Positions 51,209-59,527 of a DNA stretch of 64,000 nucleotides are shown here, in pieces. Numbering within the stretch: position 1 is the first letter of the stretch; each line of letters starts with the position of its first letter. A program made the translations under genes and the position numbers. The DNA is taken from positions 800,001-864,000 of the forward strand of contig CBDBOV010000004.1 in assembly GCA_965208575.1 (NCBI GenBank), in the 5' to 3' direction. The stretch is from Spirochaetia bacterium (GTDB taxonomy: Bacteria; Spirochaetota; Spirochaetia; SZUA-6; Bin103). The notes under the pieces were generated by a model that was not told where the DNA came from, searched no databases, and saw nothing but the letters and a program-made list of their open reading frames with translations.

Positions 51209-51310
51209 GCCTGCGCGGGCGCTCGGCGATGTGGAAGACGACGAAAATCGATGTACCGGCATCGTGCACCGGCCGGCTTCTTGGGACCAGGCCAGCCGGG
51301 GAGCCGACGC

Positions 51311-52384
51311 GTGCACACGGCTGAAGCGCCGCCGCTGGTGGCTGCCTGCCGGCGCCAGCCGGTCGCGCGGGTGCCGATCTGGCTGATGCGCCAGGCGGGA
51401 CGCTACCTGCCGGAGTACCGCGAGCTGCGCAGCCGGTACGGGATGCTCGACATCCTCGGCAGCGCCGAGCTGGCCGCCCGGGTCACCCTGCAGCCGCTGC
51501 GCAGGTTCGATTTCGACGGCGCCATCATCTTCGCCGACATTCTGCCGCCGCTGATCGGCATCGGGCTGGACCTGTCGTTCGGCAATGGCACCAGTCCGCG
51601 CATTCACAACCCGGTTCGCGACGCTCATGACGTTGCGGCGCTGCGCGAGGCCGACCCGCGCCGCGATCTTGCCGCCACCATGAGCGCGCTGCGGATGGTG
51701 CGTGGCGAGTTGCCGCCGGCGGTAGCGCTGATCGGCTTCTCCGGCGCGCCGTTCACGCTGGCTACCTACGCCATAGAGGGCGGCACCTCGCGTCAGTTCA
51801 CGCTTACCAAGCGGATGATGTTCGAGCAACCGAAGGCGTGGCGCGCGTTGATGGAGCGCCTGACGCGGCTGGTGATCGACTACCTGGCCGCCCAGGCCGA
51901 GGCGGGCGCGCAGGTGCTGCAGATCTTCGATAGCTGGGCGGGCGTGCTCAGCGCCGCCGACTACGGCGCCCACGTGCTGCCGTTCCTGCGCCGGGTGTGC
52001 GCCGATCTGCAGCCGGCCGGGGTTCCGCTGATCTACTTCAGCACCGGTACCGGGACGCTGCTCGAACTGCTCTCCGAGCTGCCGTGCGACGTACTGAGCG
52101 TGGACTGGCGGGTCGATCTTGCCGGTGCGCGCCGCCGGCTGCCGGCGCGCATGGCGCTGCAGGGCAACCTGGAACCGGCGCTGCTGTTCGCCCCGGAGCA
52201 GGTGCTGAAGACGCGCGCGCGCACGGTGCTTGCCGCCGGAGCAAACACCGCCGGCTACATCTTCAACCTCGGCCACGGCATTCTGCCGCAGACGCCGCCG
52301 GAAGCGGTGGCGCGGCTGGTCGACCTGGTCCATGGCCACCCGGCCGCCGCGGCCGGCAACGCACCGCCGGGGGCCGCGTCGTGA
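51311..52384 (+). CDS. hemE: Uroporphyrinogen decarboxylase
   Basis: PIWLMRQAGRYLPEY, IIFADI, GFSGAPFTLA.Y, QIFDSW, QGNL, FNLGHG. Confidence 0.96.
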   Translation: MHTAEAPPLVAACRRQPVARVPIWLMRQAGRYLPEYRELRSRYGMLDILGSAELAARVTLQPLRRFDFDGAIIFADILPPLIGIGLDLSFGNGTSPRIHNPVRDAHDVAALREADPRRDLAATMSALRMVRGELPPAVALIGFSGAPFTLATYAIEGGTSRQFTLTKRMMFEQPKAWRALMERLTRLVIDYLAAQAEAGAQVLQIFDSWAGVLSAADYGAHVLPFLRRVCADLQPAGVPLIYFSTGTGTLLELLSELPCDVLSVDWRVDLAGARRRLPARMALQGNLEPALLFAPEQVLKTRARTVLAAGANTAGYIFNLGHGILPQTPPEAVARLVDLVHGHPAAAAGNAPPGAAS

Positions 52385-53340
52385 GCCGGCTCGGCGTGCT
52401 GGTGATGGCGTACGGCGGCCCCGACTCGCTGGCCGAAGTGGAGCCCTACCTGCTGGACATCCGCGGCGGGCGGCCCACGCCGCGGGCGCTGGTGGAGGAA
52501 GTTCGCGAGCGCTACCGAAAGATCGGCGGCCGGTCGCCGCTGCGTGAGATCACCGAGCGACAGGCGCAGGCGCTCGGCGCCACCCTGCGCGAACGCGGGG
52601 TCGCCGCCACCGTCGAGGTCGGCATGCGCCACTGGCAACCGCGCATTGCCGCGGCGGTGCAGCGCCTCACCGAGCGCGGCGTGACGCGCGCGGTCGGACT
52701 CACCATGGCGCCGCACTACGCGCGGCGCAGCGTGGGCGCCTACCAGGAGCAGGTGCGCACCGCCGCAGGCGCCGCGGCGCGCGCCCCCCGGTTCAACTTC
52801 GTGTCCCACTTCTGCGACCACCCGCGCTTCACCTCCGCGGTGGCGCGCGAGGTTCGCGCCGCGCTGCGCGCACTACCCGAGCGGCCCGCGGCGGCGCCGG
52901 CGCGGCCCCGCTTCCGGGTGCTGTTTTCGGCGCACAGCCTGCCGGAGGCCTGGGTCGGCGGCGGCGACCCGTATCGTGACCAACTGGGCGCCTCGGCAGC
53001 GGCGGTGGCCGAGGCCGCCGGCCTGGCGCCGGGTCAGTGGCGGCAGTGCTACCAGTCGGCCGGCGCGCGGCCCGGCGCCTGGCTCGGGCCGGCGCTCGAC
53101 GCGGAGGTGCGGCTGGCCGCGGACGAGGGAATCGGTCACCTGGTGGTGGCGCCGTTCGGCTTCGTGGCCGACCACGTGGAGGTGCTGTTCGACATCGACA
53201 TCGAGCTGCGCGAACTCGGCGACTCGCTCGGCGTGTCGGTAAGCCGAACGCGGTCGCTCGGCACCGACCCGGAGCTGATGGCGGCGCTCGCCGACCGCGT
53301 GCTCGAATCCGCCGCCGACGGAGCAGCACGTGCGGGCTAG
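52381..53340 (+). CDS. hemH: Ferrochelatase (coproporphyrin type by context)
   Basis: MAYGGP, RY.KIGG.SPL, FSAHSLP, YQSAG...WLGP, GFVADHVEVL.DID. Confidence 0.94.
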   Translation: MSRLGVLVMAYGGPDSLAEVEPYLLDIRGGRPTPRALVEEVRERYRKIGGRSPLREITERQAQALGATLRERGVAATVEVGMRHWQPRIAAAVQRLTERGVTRAVGLTMAPHYARRSVGAYQEQVRTAAGAAARAPRFNFVSHFCDHPRFTSAVAREVRAALRALPERPAAAPARPRFRVLFSAHSLPEAWVGGGDPYRDQLGASAAAVAEAAGLAPGQWRQCYQSAGARPGAWLGPALDAEVRLAADEGIGHLVVAPFGFVADHVEVLFDIDIELRELGDSLGVSVSRTRSLGTDPELMAALADRVLESAADGAARAG

Positions 53341-53364
53341 CCGGTCCGCGGCAGCGGCGGTTCG

Positions 53365-54801
53365 ATGAGCGAATCAAGCGATCCTCGGACCCGCCAGCGC
53401 CGCGTGGTCATTGTCGGCGGCGGAGTTACCGGACTGTCGGCCGCCTACTACCTGCAGCGCGCACTGCCGGAGCGCCCGGACGTCGAGGTCGTGGTTCTGG
53501 AGGCAGACTCCCGGCCGGGCGGCAAGCTGCACACCCTCCACCACGCCGGGTTCGCCGTGGAAACCGGTCCCGACTCGTTCCTGACCAGCAAACCGGCCGC
53601 ATTGGCGCTGTGTCACGACCTCGGGCTGGACGGCGAGCTGATCCCCCAGCAGCAACCGCGCGGTGCGTACGTGTTGCGCCGCCGCCGGCTCGTGCCGATC
53701 CCGCCGGGAATGCGCCTCATCCATCCCACCCGGCGGTGGCAACTGCTGCGTTCACCGCTGCTGTCGCCGGGCGGACGCCTGCGGGCGCTTGCCCACCCGC
53801 TTACCCGCCGCAGGCGCGCGACCGGGGACGAGAGTATCGGCGCCTACGTGCAGCGCCGCTACGGCGCCGAGATGCTGCGTGTGCTCGGCGAACCGCTGCT
53901 TGCCGGGATCCACCTGGCCGATCCGTGGCAGCTCAGCCTGGAAGCTACCTTCCCGGCGCTGCACGCCGCACCGGGGCGGCGGCGCCGCGGCGCCGCACCG
54001 GTGCAGTCGGCAGCGGGGCCGAAGCACCTGCACGGCAGTCCGTTCGCCAGCCTCGCGGGCGGCATGGAGCGGTTGACCGACGCACTCCTGGGCGAACTCG
54101 GCGGCTCGGTAAGCACCGACACGACGGTGCACGAGCTGATTCCTTCCGAGGGAGGCTATCGCCTGGTCCTGAAAGGAAATCCGTCCCTCAGTGGCCACTA
54201 CGAGCTACCCGCCGACGCGGTGCTCGTGACGACGCCGGCGGCGGCCGCGGCGCGCCTCGTGAACGGCGTCAACCCGTCCCTGGCCCGGCTGCTCGAGGCG
54301 GCGCGCGCCACCTCGTCGGCGGTCGTGACCCTCGGCTTCCACGAGCCTGATCAGGCGCTGCCCTTGGGGTCGGGATTCCTGGTGCCGCGCGGCGAGGACA
54401 GCCGGCTGCTCGCTTGTACGTGGAGCTCCAACAAGTTCGCCTCGCGCGCGCCCAAGGGCGCCATTCTGGTGCGCGGCTTCGTGGGCGGCTGGCGCGACCC
54501 GAAGGTCCTGGAGTTGGACGACGACGAGCTGCTGGATCTGGTACGGGGCGAGATGGCGATACTGCTCGGCGGCGTGTTCGGCGGCGACACGCCTGCCACC
54601 ATCCGCCACGTGGCACGCTGGCCGGAGGGCACACCGTTGTACCAGGTCGGGCACCGTCAGTGGCTGGCCAAGCTCGCCGCCGCCGGCAAGACCACCCCTG
54701 GGCTGTGGCTGGCCGGTGCTGCCTACGACGGCGTCGGCATTCCCGACTGCATCCACCAGGCCCGCAACGCCGCCGGCGAGATTGTCCGCTACCTCGGCTG
54801 A
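53365..54801 (+). CDS. hemY: HemY-type copro/protoporphyrinogen oxidase
   Basis: GGGVTGLSAAY, ETGPDSF, EPLLAGI, GSGFLVP, YQVGH, GVGIPDC. Confidence 0.93.
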   Translation: MSESSDPRTRQRRVVIVGGGVTGLSAAYYLQRALPERPDVEVVVLEADSRPGGKLHTLHHAGFAVETGPDSFLTSKPAALALCHDLGLDGELIPQQQPRGAYVLRRRRLVPIPPGMRLIHPTRRWQLLRSPLLSPGGRLRALAHPLTRRRRATGDESIGAYVQRRYGAEMLRVLGEPLLAGIHLADPWQLSLEATFPALHAAPGRRRRGAAPVQSAAGPKHLHGSPFASLAGGMERLTDALLGELGGSVSTDTTVHELIPSEGGYRLVLKGNPSLSGHYELPADAVLVTTPAAAAARLVNGVNPSLARLLEAARATSSAVVTLGFHEPDQALPLGSGFLVPRGEDSRLLACTWSSNKFASRAPKGAILVRGFVGGWRDPKVLELDDDELLDLVRGEMAILLGGVFGGDTPATIRHVARWPEGTPLYQVGHRQWLAKLAAAGKTTPGLWLAGAAYDGVGIPDCIHQARNAAGEIVRYLG

Positions 54802-54828
54802 CCTGCTGACGCCGGCGGCGGTCGCCGG

Positions 54829-54858
54829 TTGACACGGCTCCATCGGTGAGCGTATATA
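54829..54858 (+). promoter_or_regulatory. Sigma70 promoter for the ABC-2 operon leader
   Basis: TTGACA (54829-54834), N18, TATATA (54853-54858). Confidence 0.6.
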
Positions 54859-54871
54859 CAACTCCACTCTG

Positions 54872-54994
54872 ATGAGCGGCGCACCGGTCACCACACTCGC
54901 GGCCGAATCGACTCCGACGTTCGCGGCGATTTCGCTAGTCGCGGATCACATGTGGTGCGTCCTCATGGCAGAGGAGGTCAATCCGGCAGGGTAA
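54872..54994 (+). CDS. Putative 40-aa leader peptide
   Basis: MSGAPVTTLAAESTPTFAAISLVADHMWCVLMAEEVNPAG, between the promoter and a terminator; no clear SD. Confidence 0.5.
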   Translation: MSGAPVTTLAAESTPTFAAISLVADHMWCVLMAEEVNPAG

Positions 54995-55018
54995 CGTCGC
55001 CGCCTCGGCGCAACCGTG

Positions 55019-55047
55019 AAGGCCCTGCCATTGCGCAGGGCCTTTTT
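55019..55047 (+). terminator. Intrinsic terminator (attenuator) upstream of the ABC-2 operon
   Basis: AAGGCCCTGC-CATTGC-GCAGGGCCTT-TTT. Confidence 0.85.
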
Positions 55048-55094
55048 CATTGGTGTGCGGCGGTCGGCGCGACCCTCCGATGGGAGGAGCGCCA

Positions 55095-56081
55095 ATGATC
55101 ATCGAAGCACGCAATCTGCGCAAACGGTTCCGGGTGCGGGCGGCACGCACCCGCACCGCCGGCGCGATGGGCGCACTGCGCGGCATGGCAGCGGCGCCCC
55201 GCTGGCGGACGGTGGCGGCGGTGGACGACATCGACCTCGCCGTGGCGCACGGCGAGGCGATCGCCTTCATCGGACCCAACGGGGCCGGCAAGTCGACCAC
55301 CATCAAGCTGTTGACCGGCATCCTGCAGCGCGACCGCGGCTCGGTCTCGGTGCTCGGGCTCGACCCGCAACGCCAGCGCCGCCGGCTCGCCTACCGCATC
55401 GGCACGGTGTTCGGCCAGAAGTCGCAGCTCTGGTTCCACCTGCCGCCGATCGACACCTTCAGGCTGCTCGCCGATATCTACGACCTGGAGCCGCGCCGGG
55501 CGCGGGAACGCATCGCCGCTCTGACCGAGGTGTTCGGCATCGGCCGCCACCTGGCCACGCCGGTGCGCAAGCTGTCCCTGGGCGAGCGCATCCGCTGCGA
55601 GATTGCGGCGTCGCTGATCCACGATCCGGAGCTGCTGCTCCTGGATGAGCCCACCATCGGACTGGACGTGGTGATTCGGCAGCGCATCCGCGACCTGATC
55701 GCCCGCGTCAACCGCGAGCGTGGAGTAACCGTGTTCCTGACCTCGCACGACACCGGCGACATGGAGCAGGTGTGCCGGCGCGCGGTGGTGATCAACGAGG
55801 GACGCATCGTCTGGGACGGTGCCGTCGACGAGCTGCGGCGCTCGGTGCTGGCGGCAAAGATCGTGGACCTCAAGCTGTCCGGACCGCTGGCTCTCGACCT
55901 GCCGGAGGTCACCGTACGACACGCGGACCGGTATTCCGCCAAGCTGGAAGTCGACACCGCCCGAACCCGAGTCGAGGCGGTGGTGCGCGCCATCCTGCAG
56001 CGCAACACGGTGCTGGACATCACCATCTCCGACCCGCCCCTGGAGGAGACCATTGCCGCGCTGTACGGAGACACGGCGTGA
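55095..56081 (+). CDS. ABC-2 type exporter ATP-binding protein
   Basis: GGAGGAG RBS; GPNGAGKSTT, FGQKSQLW, LSLGE, LDEPTIGLD, TSHD. Confidence 0.93.
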   Translation: MIIEARNLRKRFRVRAARTRTAGAMGALRGMAAAPRWRTVAAVDDIDLAVAHGEAIAFIGPNGAGKSTTIKLLTGILQRDRGSVSVLGLDPQRQRRRLAYRIGTVFGQKSQLWFHLPPIDTFRLLADIYDLEPRRARERIAALTEVFGIGRHLATPVRKLSLGERIRCEIAASLIHDPELLLLDEPTIGLDVVIRQRIRDLIARVNRERGVTVFLTSHDTGDMEQVCRRAVVINEGRIVWDGAVDELRRSVLAAKIVDLKLSGPLALDLPEVTVRHADRYSAKLEVDTARTRVEAVVRAILQRNTVLDITISDPPLEETIAALYGDTA

Positions 56082-56893
56082 TCGCCGTGGTCTCCCGATG
56101 CAGTCCCTGGCTGCGCCGCTACGGCCGCGCCCTCACCTACGCCGGCCGCGACCAGCTCGCCTACCCCGCCGCGCTGCTCACGCGCGGCGTGCTGCTGGTG
56201 ATCTTCGTGTTCGTGTTCAACACGCTGTGGCGGGCGATCGCCGGCGACGACGGCGAACTGCGCGGCCTCACCGTGGTGCAGCTCACGTGGTACCTGGTGT
56301 TCACCGAGATGGTCGAGCTGGCCCGGCCCACCATCATGGCGGAGATCCAGGAGCAGGTGCAGGACGGCAGCATCGCCTACGGCCTGGTGCGCCCCTACTC
56401 CTACCCCCTGTTCGCCGTTGCCCGCGCCGTCGGCCAGGCGCTCACCAAGACGGTGCCGATCGGCATGGCGGGAGCGGTGGTCGCGCTGGCGCTGGTGGGG
56501 CCGCTGCCGGGATTGGCGGCCGCCCTGCCCCGCGGCCTGCCCCTGTTCGCCGGCGCGCTGCTGCTGAACTGCCTGTGGATGCTGATCATCGGCCTCACCG
56601 CGTTCTGGTTCGAGTCGGTGCTGCCGTTTCAGTGGATTCATCAGAAGCTGGTGTTCATCGTCGGCGGCATGTTCTTCCCGCTCGACCTGCTGCCGCCGTG
56701 GCTGGCGGGGGTGGCGGCGCGGCTGCCGTTTGCATTCCAGGCCTACTGGCCGGCGCGCATGCTGGTAGACCCAGCCCCCGAGCTGTTCGCCGAGGCGCTG
56801 CTCGGCACCGCGTTCTACGCCGTGCTGCTCGGCGCGCTGGCGGCCGGCCTGTTCCAACTCGGCATGCAAAGGGTACAGGCCAATGGCGGCTGA
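56078..56893 (+). CDS. ABC-2 family permease (DUF990-like)
   Basis: Six TMs; VQDGSIAYGLVRP, GGMFFPLDLLP, LPF. Confidence 0.88.
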   Translation: MIAVVSRCSPWLRRYGRALTYAGRDQLAYPAALLTRGVLLVIFVFVFNTLWRAIAGDDGELRGLTVVQLTWYLVFTEMVELARPTIMAEIQEQVQDGSIAYGLVRPYSYPLFAVARAVGQALTKTVPIGMAGAVVALALVGPLPGLAAALPRGLPLFAGALLLNCLWMLIIGLTAFWFESVLPFQWIHQKLVFIVGGMFFPLDLLPPWLAGVAARLPFAFQAYWPARMLVDPAPELFAEALLGTAFYAVLLGALAAGLFQLGMQRVQANGG

Positions 56894-57746
56894 CCGGCGC
56901 CGCACCGCTGCCGCGCCGGCGACCGGCGCGGCGCGCTGCTACCGCACGCTCCGCCTGCTCGGCCGCTACTTCCGCGTCAACCTGGCCGCCAACACCGCCT
57001 ACCCGGTGCCGTTCGCGATCCAGGTGGTCGCCATGGCCGCCAACAACGCCATGTTCCTGGCGTTCTGGGCGATCCTGTTCGAGGCGATAGACGCGCCGAT
57101 TGCCGGCTACACGTTCACTGACGTGATGTTCCTGTGGGCGGTGGCGGCCGCCGGCTTCGGCCTTGGGGCGGTGCTGTGCGGCAATTCCGGCCACCTGTCG
57201 CGCATCATCTACCGGGGCGACCTCGACGTGTACCTGGCCCAGCCCAAGCCGGTGCTGCCCAACCTGCTGGCCTCGCGCATGTCGGTGTCGAGCTGGGGAG
57301 ACCTGCTGTACGGACTCGGCCTGTTCGCCGTCAGCCAGCCGCTCACCGGGCCGAGCATCGGCCTGTTCCTGGTGTTCGTGCTGCTGGCCGCCGGCGTGCT
57401 GGTCGCGGTGCGGGTGCTGTACCACAGCCTGACCTTTCTGCTCGGCAACGCCGAGGATCTGGCCGGCGTGGGCTCGGAGCAGATCATCACCTTCTCCCTG
57501 TATCCGGGTACCATCTTCGACGGCCCGCTGGTGGCCGTGGTGCTGCACACCCTGATCCCGGCGGCGCTGGTCGCCCACCTGCCCGCCGACCTGTTCCGCG
57601 CCGTCGTCCGCGGTACCGGGATGGACTGGGGCCTGCTGGCGATCATCGTCGCCGGGGACGCCGCCCTGATCGCGGCTGCCTGGGCGCTGTTCGCCCTGGG
57701 CCTGCGCCGCTACGAGTCCGGCAACCGCATCGGCGCCCGCATCTGA
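56883..57746 (+). CDS. ABC-2 family permease (DUF990-like)
   Basis: I.RGDLDVYLAQP, YP.TIF, GLRRYESG. Confidence 0.88.
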   Translation: MAADRRRTAAAPATGAARCYRTLRLLGRYFRVNLAANTAYPVPFAIQVVAMAANNAMFLAFWAILFEAIDAPIAGYTFTDVMFLWAVAAAGFGLGAVLCGNSGHLSRIIYRGDLDVYLAQPKPVLPNLLASRMSVSSWGDLLYGLGLFAVSQPLTGPSIGLFLVFVLLAAGVLVAVRVLYHSLTFLLGNAEDLAGVGSEQIITFSLYPGTIFDGPLVAVVLHTLIPAALVAHLPADLFRAVVRGTGMDWGLLAIIVAGDAALIAAAWALFALGLRRYESGNRIGARI

Positions 57747-57793
57747 AGTCGGTGGGCGCCCACATGGCCCATGAGCCGGTGCGTGGCAATCGC

Positions 57794-59527
57794 TTACCGC
57801 GAACGTTCGACGCCTACGCGCTCCGCAACAAGTGCGATGGCATCCAGTTTTTGGCGGATTTCCGGGTCGATCTCGCGGTCGGGCACATGTTCGGCCAGTT
57901 CGTAGAAGCTCTTCTTGGCCATCAGGTTCGGCAGCCCCAGCTTCTTGAAGTACGACGCGAACAGAGGCGTCAGAAACTCGTCGCTTGCCTTGATGTCCGC
58001 ATCCCAGGGAGAACCCCTGTCGAGCGTCTCCAGGGCGGACTCAATCTCCGAAATCGCCCTACGCATGGCACGTAACCGGCGGTCCGCTTCGGCTTCGGTG
58101 AACAACGGCCCCGGCACGGACTGGGCAGCCGACGCCCTGGCGTAGGCTTCCAGCGTGGCTTGCGAACTCAGGTAATTCTCGATTTCGCGGCGGTTCCAGA
58201 TCTGACACTCGACAGGGGCCAGATCCGGAGGAGGGATTCGATCGAAGAGAGCGATGCCACGCAGGGCCGGCAGAGCCTCCTTCAGTCCGTGGAAGTGCCG
58301 CCGCACGGCAGCCGGCTGGTTCTCCACTACGCAGACGAATGGCCGCTCCAACGCCTTGATTGCCCGTTCATGACCCAACCGGCGGGCAAACGCTTGCAGA
58401 ATGCTGAGATCGGTCGAACCTTCGACATAGAGCACCCAGCCGGTCTGTTCCGCCTGGTAGTACTGGTCGAACGGAATATCCCGGAGCGCCTTCAGAACCT
58501 GACTGCCGCGGTCGTCGATGCGATGCGGTTGGCCGACGAAGGCCACCACCATGTCACGGCCGGCGGCCTGGTTGAGCAGCACTTCGGAGTGACTGGCGGC
58601 GATGATCTGGCTGCCGCTCTCGCGCGCCACGTCAGTCAGCAAGGCGTAGATCTGACGCTGGCGGAGAATCTCCAGGTGTGCGTCCGGTTCGTCCAGCAGC
58701 AGAATGGCACCCGGATTCGCGTACATGTACGCCAGCAGCAGCAGGGTCTGCTGCAAGCCGCGCCCGGCCGACGAGAGGTCGAGTTGGATTCGCCCTTCGC
58801 GATAGGTCATCGCGATTTCGCCGCGAGCCGCGACGTAATGCGGGGGATCGAGTTCAACGCCGAACAAGCTCCGAGTCTGCGCCACCAGCCGGTCCCACGG
58901 AGACAGGTGCTGATTGTGAACCGCCAAGCACAGGTTGCGCAGCACCTCGGCCGTGCGGCCCTCGCCGATGCGGACGCTAACGGCGCCGCTGTCGAGACGC
59001 GTCTCGGTGGCGGCCAGCCCGGACATCGGAGGCAGGAATGCGATCGGGGCGCTTCCCGCCTCCTCAGGAACAGGCATCCGGTCCGGCGTCCTGCCATCCG
59101 ACAAACGCAGCGGCCGGCAGTAGAACGACTCCTCGTTTGCGTAATCGAACTCCAATCCGCACGTCCAGGAGCGGTCATTGGAGACGCCCTCCACGACCAG
59201 GTCGATGCGGATGTTGCTGGTCCGCGGCTTCCCGTCGACCTGCCGCACGTCTCGCACATGCAGGCCTCGCCACAGCAGGTTGGCGTCAGGAACGGGGACC
59301 GCCACGAGATCGCGCCGATTGACGGTCACGCCCGGCCGCTTCTCGGGGGTGCGTCTACCTGACCGCTTCTCGTTCCAGCGCCTCAGGCCGGCATCCCACA
59401 GGGCGAGGGCCTGCATCGCGGAGGTCTTGCCGGAGTTGTTGGGGCCGATGAACACCACCGGGCTGCCGAGTTCGATTTCGACTTCGCCAAAGCGCTTGAA
59501 ATTGCGGATGATCAACCTGGTGAGCAA
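57794..59527 (-). CDS. ABC-type AAA ATPase with Toprim-like C-terminus (OLD-like nuclease)
   Basis: IRNFKRF, GPNNSGKT, SSAGRG, LLLDEPDAHL, ASHS, VEGSTD, REIENY. Confidence 0.82.
   Translation of the reverse strand: MLTRLIIRNFKRFGEVEIELGSPVVFIGPNNSGKTSAMQALALWDAGLRRWNEKRSGRRTPEKRPGVTVNRRDLVAVPVPDANLLWRGLHVRDVRQVDGKPRTSNIRIDLVVEGVSNDRSWTCGLEFDYANEESFYCRPLRLSDGRTPDRMPVPEEAGSAPIAFLPPMSGLAATETRLDSGAVSVRIGEGRTAEVLRNLCLAVHNQHLSPWDRLVAQTRSLFGVELDPPHYVAARGEIAMTYREGRIQLDLSSAGRGLQQTLLLLAYMYANPGAILLLDEPDAHLEILRQRQIYALLTDVARESGSQIIAASHSEVLLNQAAGRDMVVAFVGQPHRIDDRGSQVLKALRDIPFDQYYQAEQTGWVLYVEGSTDLSILQAFARRLGHERAIKALERPFVCVVENQPAAVRRHFHGLKEALPALRGIALFDRIPPPDLAPVECQIWNRREIENYLSSQATLEAYARASAAQSVPGPLFTEAEADRRLRAMRRAISEIESALETLDRGSPWDADIKASDEFLTPLFASYFKKLGLPNLMAKKSFYELAEHVPDREIDPEIRQKLDAIALVAERVGVERSR

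Follow-up and report, generated by a model that had tools for sequence, protein, structure and literature searches.

The locus described here poses a simple question: what decides whether RNA polymerase, having started at a putative promoter of the locus itself, enters an ATP-binding cassette (ABC) transporter operon or stops at a terminator directly before it? The locus lies in a window of 64,000 nucleotides (nt) from a Spirochaetia bacterium (contig CBDBOV010000004.1, positions 800,001 to 864,000), with a G+C content of about 70%, and the host belongs to an uncultured, GC-rich lineage from sponge metagenomes. The spirochete flagellar sheath family PF04620 matched neither this genome nor the control genomes. 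Coordinates are those of the window, and features are on the forward (+) strand unless a minus sign is given. A sequence-only reading of the window had described a TTGACA box, a 40-codon open reading frame (ORF) at 54872-54994, a U-tailed hairpin, a ribosome-binding site and a three-gene ABC-2 operon, and had interpreted them as an attenuator in which a ribosome finishing the leader ORF turns the operon off, while a stalled or absent ribosome turns it on. All of these parts are present where that reading had placed them. Leader-peptide attenuation is textbook biology, and on the evidence set out below we consider that the leader is probably a two-state, ribosome-mediated transcription attenuator; the proposed logic is supported both by comparison with related genomes and by folding of the leader under a ribosome mask.

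Results

Architecture of the leader

All parts of the leader fall inside the 293-nt gap that separates an upstream protoporphyrinogen-oxidase-type gene (hemY) from the ATG of the ATPase gene at 55095. The gap contains a -35-like box, TTGACA (54829-54834), followed after 18 nt by a -10-like box, TATATA (54853-54858). The first of these is represented by an invariant TTGNC in 10 of 10 aligned orthologous leaders; the second, which reads TAGGAA, TAGAAA, TAGAAG, TATAAG or TACAAG in relatives, keeps a fixed position, with an invariant G.GTA leading into it and the leader ATG 13-14 nt past it in all ten, from which a -10 function seems probable. By the same spacing, transcription is predicted to start at 54866, a conserved A that is the eighth base after the -10 box, leaving a predicted 5' untranslated region (UTR) of 6 nt that contains no Shine-Dalgarno sequence. 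The leader ORF itself (54872-54994) encodes 40 codons (MSGAPVTTLAAESTPTFAAISLVADHMWCVLMAEEVNPAG), has no Pfam match and stops at TAA (54992-54994). It includes a Shine-Dalgarno-like sequence, GAGGAGGT (54971-54978), 14-21 nt before the stop, and ends in the 5' strand of a predicted antiterminator, GGCAGGGU (54985-54992), which overlaps the stop codon; the GGCAGGG within it (54985-54991) abuts the TAA. A small hairpin of GCCG-loop-CGGC type follows (54996-55012; -7.4 kcal/mol), which the antiterminator would enclose. The predicted intrinsic terminator (55019-55050) has a GC-rich stem of 10 bp and a 6-nt loop, and is followed by UUUUUCAU; its stem-loop, AAGGCCCTGC / CATTGC / GCAGGGCCTT, occupies 55019-55044, continues into TTTCATT and folds at -19.1 kcal/mol in RNAfold. 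A consensus scan of 53000-59000 reported two terminator-like sites, neither of which is this hairpin, a likely reason being that the scan adds a G-T pair to the stem at the cost of the T run.

Between the hairpin and the ATPase ATG there are about 45 nt in which neither reading by eye nor the consensus scan found promoter-like boxes, so there is no room for a second promoter. A separate promoter downstream of the hairpin, which the sequence-only reading had named as an outcome that would count against it, is thus not seen.

Two structures predicted to be mutually exclusive

The terminator and the predicted antiterminator would compete for the same bases. In folds of the nascent RNA, before the 3' arm of the terminator has been made, GGCAGGGU pairs at 8 of 8 positions with GCCCUGCC (55022-55029), enclosing the small hairpin, and this antiterminator appears in the minimum free energy (MFE) structure and in all listed suboptimal structures of the ribosome-free nascent RNA. 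No anti-antiterminator was found in these folds. When the bases under a ribosome at the stop codon were masked, the antiterminator retained 0 of 8 pairs and the terminator 10 of 10; when there was no mask, or when the ribosome was placed at codon 6 or codon 31, the antiterminator formed all 8 pairs. The geometry recurs in nascent-RNA MFE structures of the family, where the bases that pair with the 5' arm of the terminator fall between -7 and +6 of the stop in six of six representatives.

A second conserved structure, helix A, closes the leader. Its 5' strand (54867-54886) contains the leader AUG and pairs in the MFE structure with 54953-54973, where the codons specify W-C-V-L-M-A-E, and the whole domain (54866-54975) folds at -46.0 kcal/mol. 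Helix A overlaps neither switch strand nor the antiterminator. The 180-nt leader RNA as a whole folds better than its shuffles (z = -2.74; 0 of 200 shuffles as stable). Over an alignment of 13 sequences the consensus structure is paired in 81.7% of cells, compared with 39-56% in slid controls; for helix A the proportion is 75%, with covariation not above shuffles. RNAalifold, run on nine sequences, kept both the terminator and helix A, the latter with compensatory changes at five pairs. One possible role of helix A is to restrict initiation to a single pioneer ribosome; another is to make the polymerase pause.

The small hairpin, as read from the alignment, is present in 10 orthologues with variable loops and without covariation. 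We had considered an ANTAR-type dual-hexaloop target here and rejected it, the loops being of 3-5 nt and variable.

The leader accompanies the transporter

To gather orthologues, we searched 41 genomes at the DNA level and, with the ATPase, the 92 genomes of the order. Close orthologues of the transporter, with ATPases 81-94% identical, occur in nine other genomes, four of genus g1 and five of its sister genus g2, and the leader is present in all nine. Alignable sequence starts exactly at the -35 box. The 10 sequences share TTGNC, the 18-nt spacer, a TA-rich -10 box, the invariant ATG and the 5' codons, and then the motif GTGSG..CTC..GGAGGT..CCAT..GGYAGGGT; the terminator, AGGCCCTGCC-loop-GCAGGG followed by a T run and CATTG, is nearly invariant in 13 sequences. 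The sequence-only reading had made conservation of the leader ORF and of the pairing its test, and both are kept in homologues.

Gene order points the same way. Among the nine other genomes, hemY directly precedes the leader in G006 and G008 alone; it lies elsewhere in G003, G009 and the five g2 genomes. The upstream gene in g2 is divergent, so that the leader promoter is the only one directed into the operon. Judged by these arrangements, the unit of promoter, ORF and terminator belongs to the transporter and not to the hem operon, and the suggestion that the hairpin merely terminates hem transcription, which had been raised together with the attenuator, does not fit. Close relatives have often lost the operon, and the leader has then met different fates. 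In G007 (L007) a clean deletion, which begins directly past hemY and ends directly past permease 2 (window 54807-57821), has removed leader and operon together, and in G001 (L008) two internal deletions have broken the operon. In G022, G014 and G019 (L143-L145) an intact leader ORF and terminator stand before a degraded or missing ATPase gene.

Beyond these genomes the element is scarce. A covariance model of the 3' half of the leader, with the terminator as its core (R1), gave strong matches (at least 77 bits) in only 13 of the 92 genomes of the order, all in family f1, and the sequence family is limited to two genera. A weaker match in G040 (37 bits) proved to be the terminator of an unrelated gene, while G081 and G060 scored 24 bits or less. 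The next tier of ATPases in the order (G002, G082, G083, G076, G031 and G027; 53-65% identical) includes none with the leader, and neither does any of the four paralogous ABC operons checked in the same genome. A pattern scan of metagenomes, which yielded at least 119 stretches, 80 of them scored with R1, added no new members (best score 33.4 bits). We also considered a repeat or multi-copy small RNA, and rejected it on finding a single genomic copy by both BLAST and the covariance model; the only other R1 match in the genome is an antisense hairpin at 17.4 bits.

A conserved and probably translated frame

The frame is open from the invariant ATG in 13 of 13 family members despite four different lengths: 40, 40, 31, 36 and 31 codons in g1 (120, 120, 93, 108 and 93 nt) and 26 codons (78 nt) in the eight g2 sequences, such that all differences in length are multiples of three. 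The third codon position has the highest G+C content (GC3) in 12 of 12 sequences and the second position (GC2) the lowest in 11 of 12, which is the order found in the flanking genes (GC3>GC1>GC2). Most telling for the ORF, as far as sequence can tell, is the way it ends. In g1 the terminal codons read G|GCA|GGG|TAA; g2 has two extra bases upstream and stops at the TAG inside GGTAGGG, so that the frames at the end differ, yet both stop on the same RNA element. From these patterns we infer that the frame is translated.

The RNA element is conserved in turn. Of 13 family members, 12 have GGCAGGG or, in the sister genus, GGTAGGG; G014 is short of one G (GGTAGG). All 10 orthologues with a retained transporter have GGAGGT, despite the frame change between g1 and g2, and the three decayed remnants have GGAGAT in its place. 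The GGAGG box may hold the terminating ribosome through pairing with the anti-Shine-Dalgarno sequence. Its use as a hidden re-initiation site was rejected, there being no conserved start codon 5-10 nt downstream.

Distant orthologues carry other leaders

Among named sequences, the nearest relatives of the ATPase (55-58% identical) are on two contigs of metagenome-assembled genomes (MAGs) labelled Spirochaetales, whose leaders are unrelated in sequence and have the same layout. In L024 a 40-codon ORF contains, four codons before its stop, ATCCACGG, the partner of the terminator arm CCGTGGAT; the paired bases are at -20 to -10 from that stop, and 47 of 1000 shuffles pair as well. L280 (from G095), a 71% relative of L024, has a 35-codon ORF in the same arrangement, and the two share the segment (A/T)TCCACGG. 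L024 (2600-2900) and L280 both have exactly 6 nt between a -10 box (TATACC or TATACA) and the ATG of the leader, so the leader ORF is predicted to be read from a leaderless mRNA. In L022, which has an analogous ORF, the partner of the terminator arm is at +6 to +14 from the stop, a pairing equalled by 358 of 1000 shuffles. Four Bacillota orthologues (L025, L028, L031 and L033) have ORFs of 17-28 codons led by a Shine-Dalgarno sequence, with terminators behind them and spacers that are longer and more complex.

Elsewhere the place of the leader ORF is taken by a ykkC-like RNA with a terminator, as in orthologous operons of Brassicibacter, Paenibacillus and some MAGs. The example in L023 (2843-2933) scores 54.1 bits on the guanidine-I model, under its gathering score of 63, and in L029 and L032 a ykkC-like motif and terminator lie about 160-190 nt upstream of the ATPase start. 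By eye only, L027 and L114, the latter at a contig end, resemble a ykkC-like RNA, and the contig of G083 ends inside what appears by eye to be the 3' half of a ykkC-like RNA with its terminator. The ykkC-like RNAs of these orthologues fit the published class that binds guanosine tetraphosphate (ppGpp; ykkC subtype 2a). Sherlock et al. 2018 (PMC6003355) place ppGpp riboswitches upstream of natA + COG3694 + COG4587 operons in 12 of 105 cases, and state that no link between these transporters and ppGpp is known. In L026 (2300-2586) a short protein encoded directly upstream of the ATPase resembles, by reading of its sequence, a helix-turn-helix (XRE-like) regulator, which would be another solution to the control of the same operon family.

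Weighing the attenuator against its alternatives

Several observations weigh against the attenuator. The best duplex between the 5' arm of the terminator and the 149 nt upstream, CGGCAGGGTA, has an energy of -18.0 kcal/mol, and 164 of 1000 dinucleotide shuffles of this GC-rich upstream region pair as well. Of the complementarity that the sequence-only reading had attached to GGCAGGG, the position directly before the TAA and the conservation hold, but the strength is within what shuffling produces, and because it is within chance the case rests on comparison with other genomes. A second switch strand claimed in the same reading, ATGGCAG (54965-54971), occurs in the window and in G006, the nearest relative, and in no other family member; it is probably incidental, and we rejected it for want of conservation beyond G006. 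The covariation that had been suggested as a check is not significant: across the 13 sequences, which come from two genera, four pairs are changed on both sides, and 359 of 500 shuffles have at least as many; the antiterminator is paired in 98% of cells with no compensatory pair at all. When the 3' arm is added, the RNA folds at -79.4 kcal/mol with the terminator and at -75.0 kcal/mol with the antiterminator forced; the terminator wins at equilibrium, hence control must be kinetic and the model rests on kinetics.

Other difficulties concern expression of the leader. The consensus scan of 53000-59000 called no promoter, because the -10 box is non-canonical and lacks the usual final T. With no Shine-Dalgarno sequence, a predicted 5' UTR of 6 nt and an AUG inside the strong helix A, efficient translation of the leader is not assured. 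The peptide evolves freely in its central part (by manual count, the window and G006 differ at 10 of 40 residues), and the peptides contain no runs of one amino acid, only a loose patch rich in Ile, Leu and Val before acidic residues; what is conserved could be RNA rather than peptide. Finally, the intact leaders at the three loci with decayed transporters show recent loss and not function.

Could the RNA then choose without a ribosome? A metabolite, perhaps sensed by a new alarmone riboswitch or one of another kind, or an RNA-binding protein, would in that case decide between the structures, with helix A and the GGAGGU..CCAU tail as its site and the frame incidental. This is consistent with the conservation of the 3' end of the leader at the nucleotide level across the frame change, with the strong conserved helix that closes the leader and with the ORF having no Shine-Dalgarno sequence; the GGA-rich single strand could be a protein site, and operons of the same family are under riboswitch control elsewhere (PMC6003355; the ykkC-like RNA of L023 noted above). 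We nonetheless think it unlikely. Within one genus, the segment inside helix A differs in length by 27 nt, and its sequence is not conserved, unlike that of an aptamer core. Since helix A is clear of the antiterminator, and of both switch strands, it is hard to see how an aptamer stabilised by a ligand would choose between the two structures. An Rfam scan of 53500-58500 found no family at threshold; it gave two sub-threshold chance matches, one of them suhB/mmgR on the terminator (20.1 bits; gathering score 41), and the ykkC, guanidine-I and ppGpp riboswitch models had no match in that interval at E up to 5. Control by RNA structure alone also leaves unexplained the in-frame insertions and deletions, the GC3 periodicity in 12 of 12 sequences and a stop codon locked to the antiterminator in two frames, and it does not account for the unrelated leaders of distant orthologues, which have short ORFs ending at an antiterminator as well.

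If a ribosome is the sensor, it might instead be halted by its own product. The C-terminal W-C-V-L-x-x-E-E-V-x-x-A-G-stop could be an arrest peptide that stalls only with a small molecule, such as the substrate or a drug, in the exit tunnel, a specific form of the drug sensing suggested in the sequence-only reading. The C-terminal third is indeed the conserved part of the peptide and is loosely like those of the unrelated leader of L022 (SILVQVDVPEERVG-stop) and of L031 (SILIIVGHLIG); the g1 and L022 peptides both end Gly-stop, and drug-dependent stalling on a leader is established for bmrCD, vmlR and tlrB (PMC13689557). However, the conserved codons coincide with the 3' strand of helix A and the Shine-Dalgarno-like box, so constraints on the RNA can explain them, and the g2 peptides end otherwise (LEVSIR-stop). 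A stall at or near the stop would moreover mask the antiterminator and turn the operon off, not on, and the transporter has no known substrate. An arrest peptide of this kind is accordingly improbable.

It is very unlikely that there is no regulation here, with the promoter-to-hairpin unit a separate small RNA gene, or the hairpin the terminator of the hem operon, and the transporter expressed by constitutive leak-through: hemY does end 70 nt before the leader ATG without a terminator of its own (window, G006 and G008), the 180-nt RNA is stably folded and the leader survives in three genomes that lost the transporter, but the unit is linked to the transporter and not to hemY in seven of the nine other genomes, is the sole promoter in the right direction in g2, was lost together with the operon in G007 where hemY stayed, exists in a single copy, and keeps an invariant alternative pairing at the ORF stop that a plain terminator would not need.

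The operon and its surroundings

The operon that the attenuator would control consists of one ABC ATPase and two permeases, overlapping or abutting, the make-up of an ABC-2 operon of the natA-like / COG4587 / COG3694 kind. The natA-like ATPase (55095-56081) matches PF00005 (E 3.8e-25), its best NCBIfam match being the drrA subfamily, under the cut-off of that model. Both permeases match PF06182 (ABC2_membrane_6): permease 1 (56087-56893; E 3.9e-14), for which the start is probably GTG 56087, in frame with the stop at 56891-56893, and permease 2 (56883-57746; E 3.3e-20), whose start overlaps the stop of permease 1 within ATGGCGGCTGA. A longer ORF at 55819-57090 does not share the frame of permease 1 and matches no Pfam family. 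From the PF06182 matches and orthology, the permeases would belong to COG3694/COG4587. To our knowledge, PF06182 permeases have no known substrate, and our full-text literature search found no functional study or substrate of transporters of this family.

The ATPase gene has a Shine-Dalgarno sequence, GGGAGGAG (55082-55089), read from the sequence 5 nt upstream of its ATG. In the window and G006 only, CCCTCC (55073-55078) can pair with the GGGAGG of this site, which might add a layer of translational control; other orthologues do not keep this pairing and have a different small hairpin directly 5' of the ATPase Shine-Dalgarno sequence.

Upstream of the leader lie hemE (51251-52384), hemH and the protoporphyrinogen-oxidase-type hemY (53365-54801), in that order. 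No terminator separates this cluster (51251-54801) from the leader promoter, and in this genome hem transcripts would consequently enter the attenuator. Downstream, a convergent gene of 577 amino acids (57794-59527, -), the 3' end of which is 48 nt from the end of permease 2, encodes AAA_21, AAA_15, SMC_N-type and AAA_23 ATPase domains, an architecture common in defence or abortive-infection ATPases.

In one RNA run the ATPase gene is covered by contigs of low depth that are 90-95% alike, and no contig covers the leader. A contig of run X1 (depth 6.4, with 22 other letters) joins 54810 to 54870 and so skips 59 nt containing the -35 and -10 boxes; the junction may be a strain variant or divergent intergenic DNA.

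Discussion

The attenuator that we favour would work as follows. RNA would start at about 54866 from the promoter whose -35 box is at 54829, and a pioneer ribosome would load on the near-leaderless AUG at 54872 before helix A forms and hides it. Were this ribosome to run on to the stop at 54992, its footprint would cover GGCAGGGU, the terminator (55019-55044) would form and the polymerase would stop at the U run, leaving the operon off. Were it delayed more than about six codons before the stop, or never loaded, GGCAGGGU would be free to pair with GCCCUGCC as that strand emerges; the antiterminator would then block the 5' arm of the terminator, and the polymerase would continue into the genes for the ATPase and the two PF06182 permeases. 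The competition that we infer between these structures is one of timing. In folds of the ribosome-free nascent RNA the antiterminator is the structure that forms, so an untranslated leader is predicted to turn the operon on and not to cause super-attenuation.

What slows the ribosome is a more tentative matter. Our provisional choice, which falls somewhat short of an even bet, is a general slowing of translation, whether from amino-acid starvation or from ribosome-targeting compounds, with no single drug favoured. By analogy, the riboswitch control of orthologues hints at translation stress rather than at one drug. A specific translation inhibitor as the signal, and the transporter as a resistance pump, both suggested at the outset, are possible but unsupported.

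The locus is valuable mainly as a functional clue: in many lineages a conditional terminator appears to stand before members of a widespread ABC-2 family that has no known substrate. The occurrence of a ppGpp riboswitch in some of these and of a short ORF in others leads to a testable hypothesis, that the transporter is on when translation falters. A broader and more doubtful proposal is that the family is tied to translational stress throughout bacteria by interchangeable sensors, which would be ppGpp riboswitches in some Firmicutes and minimal two-state attenuators here and elsewhere; the leader would then be a general gauge of ribosome speed relative to polymerase, and the transporter a conserved, unrecognised part of the starvation or stringent response and not a drug pump.

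The element would itself be a new and unusually minimal attenuator of about 220 nt, having no anti-antiterminator, no Shine-Dalgarno sequence and a stop codon inside the antiterminator. A full-text literature search of partial coverage found no paper on it or on attenuators of this transporter family, and a broader search for leader-peptide attenuation of ABC transporters returned only known systems. The trpL, hisL, leuL and ilv leaders of E. coli resemble the proposed attenuator in having a short leader ORF, an intrinsic terminator and an antiterminator that shares the terminator 5' arm, with the position of the ribosome deciding between them. In the trp leader the terminator is the more stable structure and control is kinetic, and the energies computed for the window give the same picture. 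Unlike leaders of the trp type, the leader in the window lacks runs of codons for a regulating amino acid, an anti-antiterminator of the 1:2 type and a Shine-Dalgarno sequence, and has a 5' UTR of about 6 nt; its stop codon lies in the antiterminator strand, and its target is a transporter and not a biosynthetic operon.

The logic also resembles that of the Salmonella mgtA and mgtCBR leaders (mgtL, mgtP and mgtM), where completion of the leader leads to termination and a stall within the ORF to read-through, by a Rho-dependent mechanism that senses proline codons. The likeness is that a finished leader favours termination, a stall favours read-through and a transporter gene lies downstream, whereas the terminator in the window is intrinsic and no special codons are evident.

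In B. subtilis, the bmrB-bmrCD, vmlR, tlrB and ytbDE leaders likewise place an upstream ORF and a terminator before an ABC-type gene and allow read-through when the ribosome stalls on the leader (PMC13689557). As described there, these leaders form anti-antiterminator and terminator hairpins by default and have upstream ORFs led by Shine-Dalgarno sequences, and those of the bmrCD and vmlR type terminate when untranslated; the leader in the window has neither the anti-antiterminator nor a Shine-Dalgarno-led ORF. The targets differ as well, BmrCD being a type-I heterodimeric exporter and VmlR an ABC-F factor, in contrast to an ABC-2 ATPase with two PF06182 permeases, and, unlike the targets of antibiotic-inducible attenuators, this transporter has no known link to antibiotics.

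A counterpart in what is controlled is the ppGpp riboswitch (ykkC subtype 2a), which precedes the same kind of three-gene operon and is likewise read out through a conditional intrinsic terminator (PMC6003355). The sensor in the window would be the translating ribosome, with no ykkC-like sequence involved, but the inputs of the two, alarmone level in one and ribosome stalling in the other, are plausibly related.

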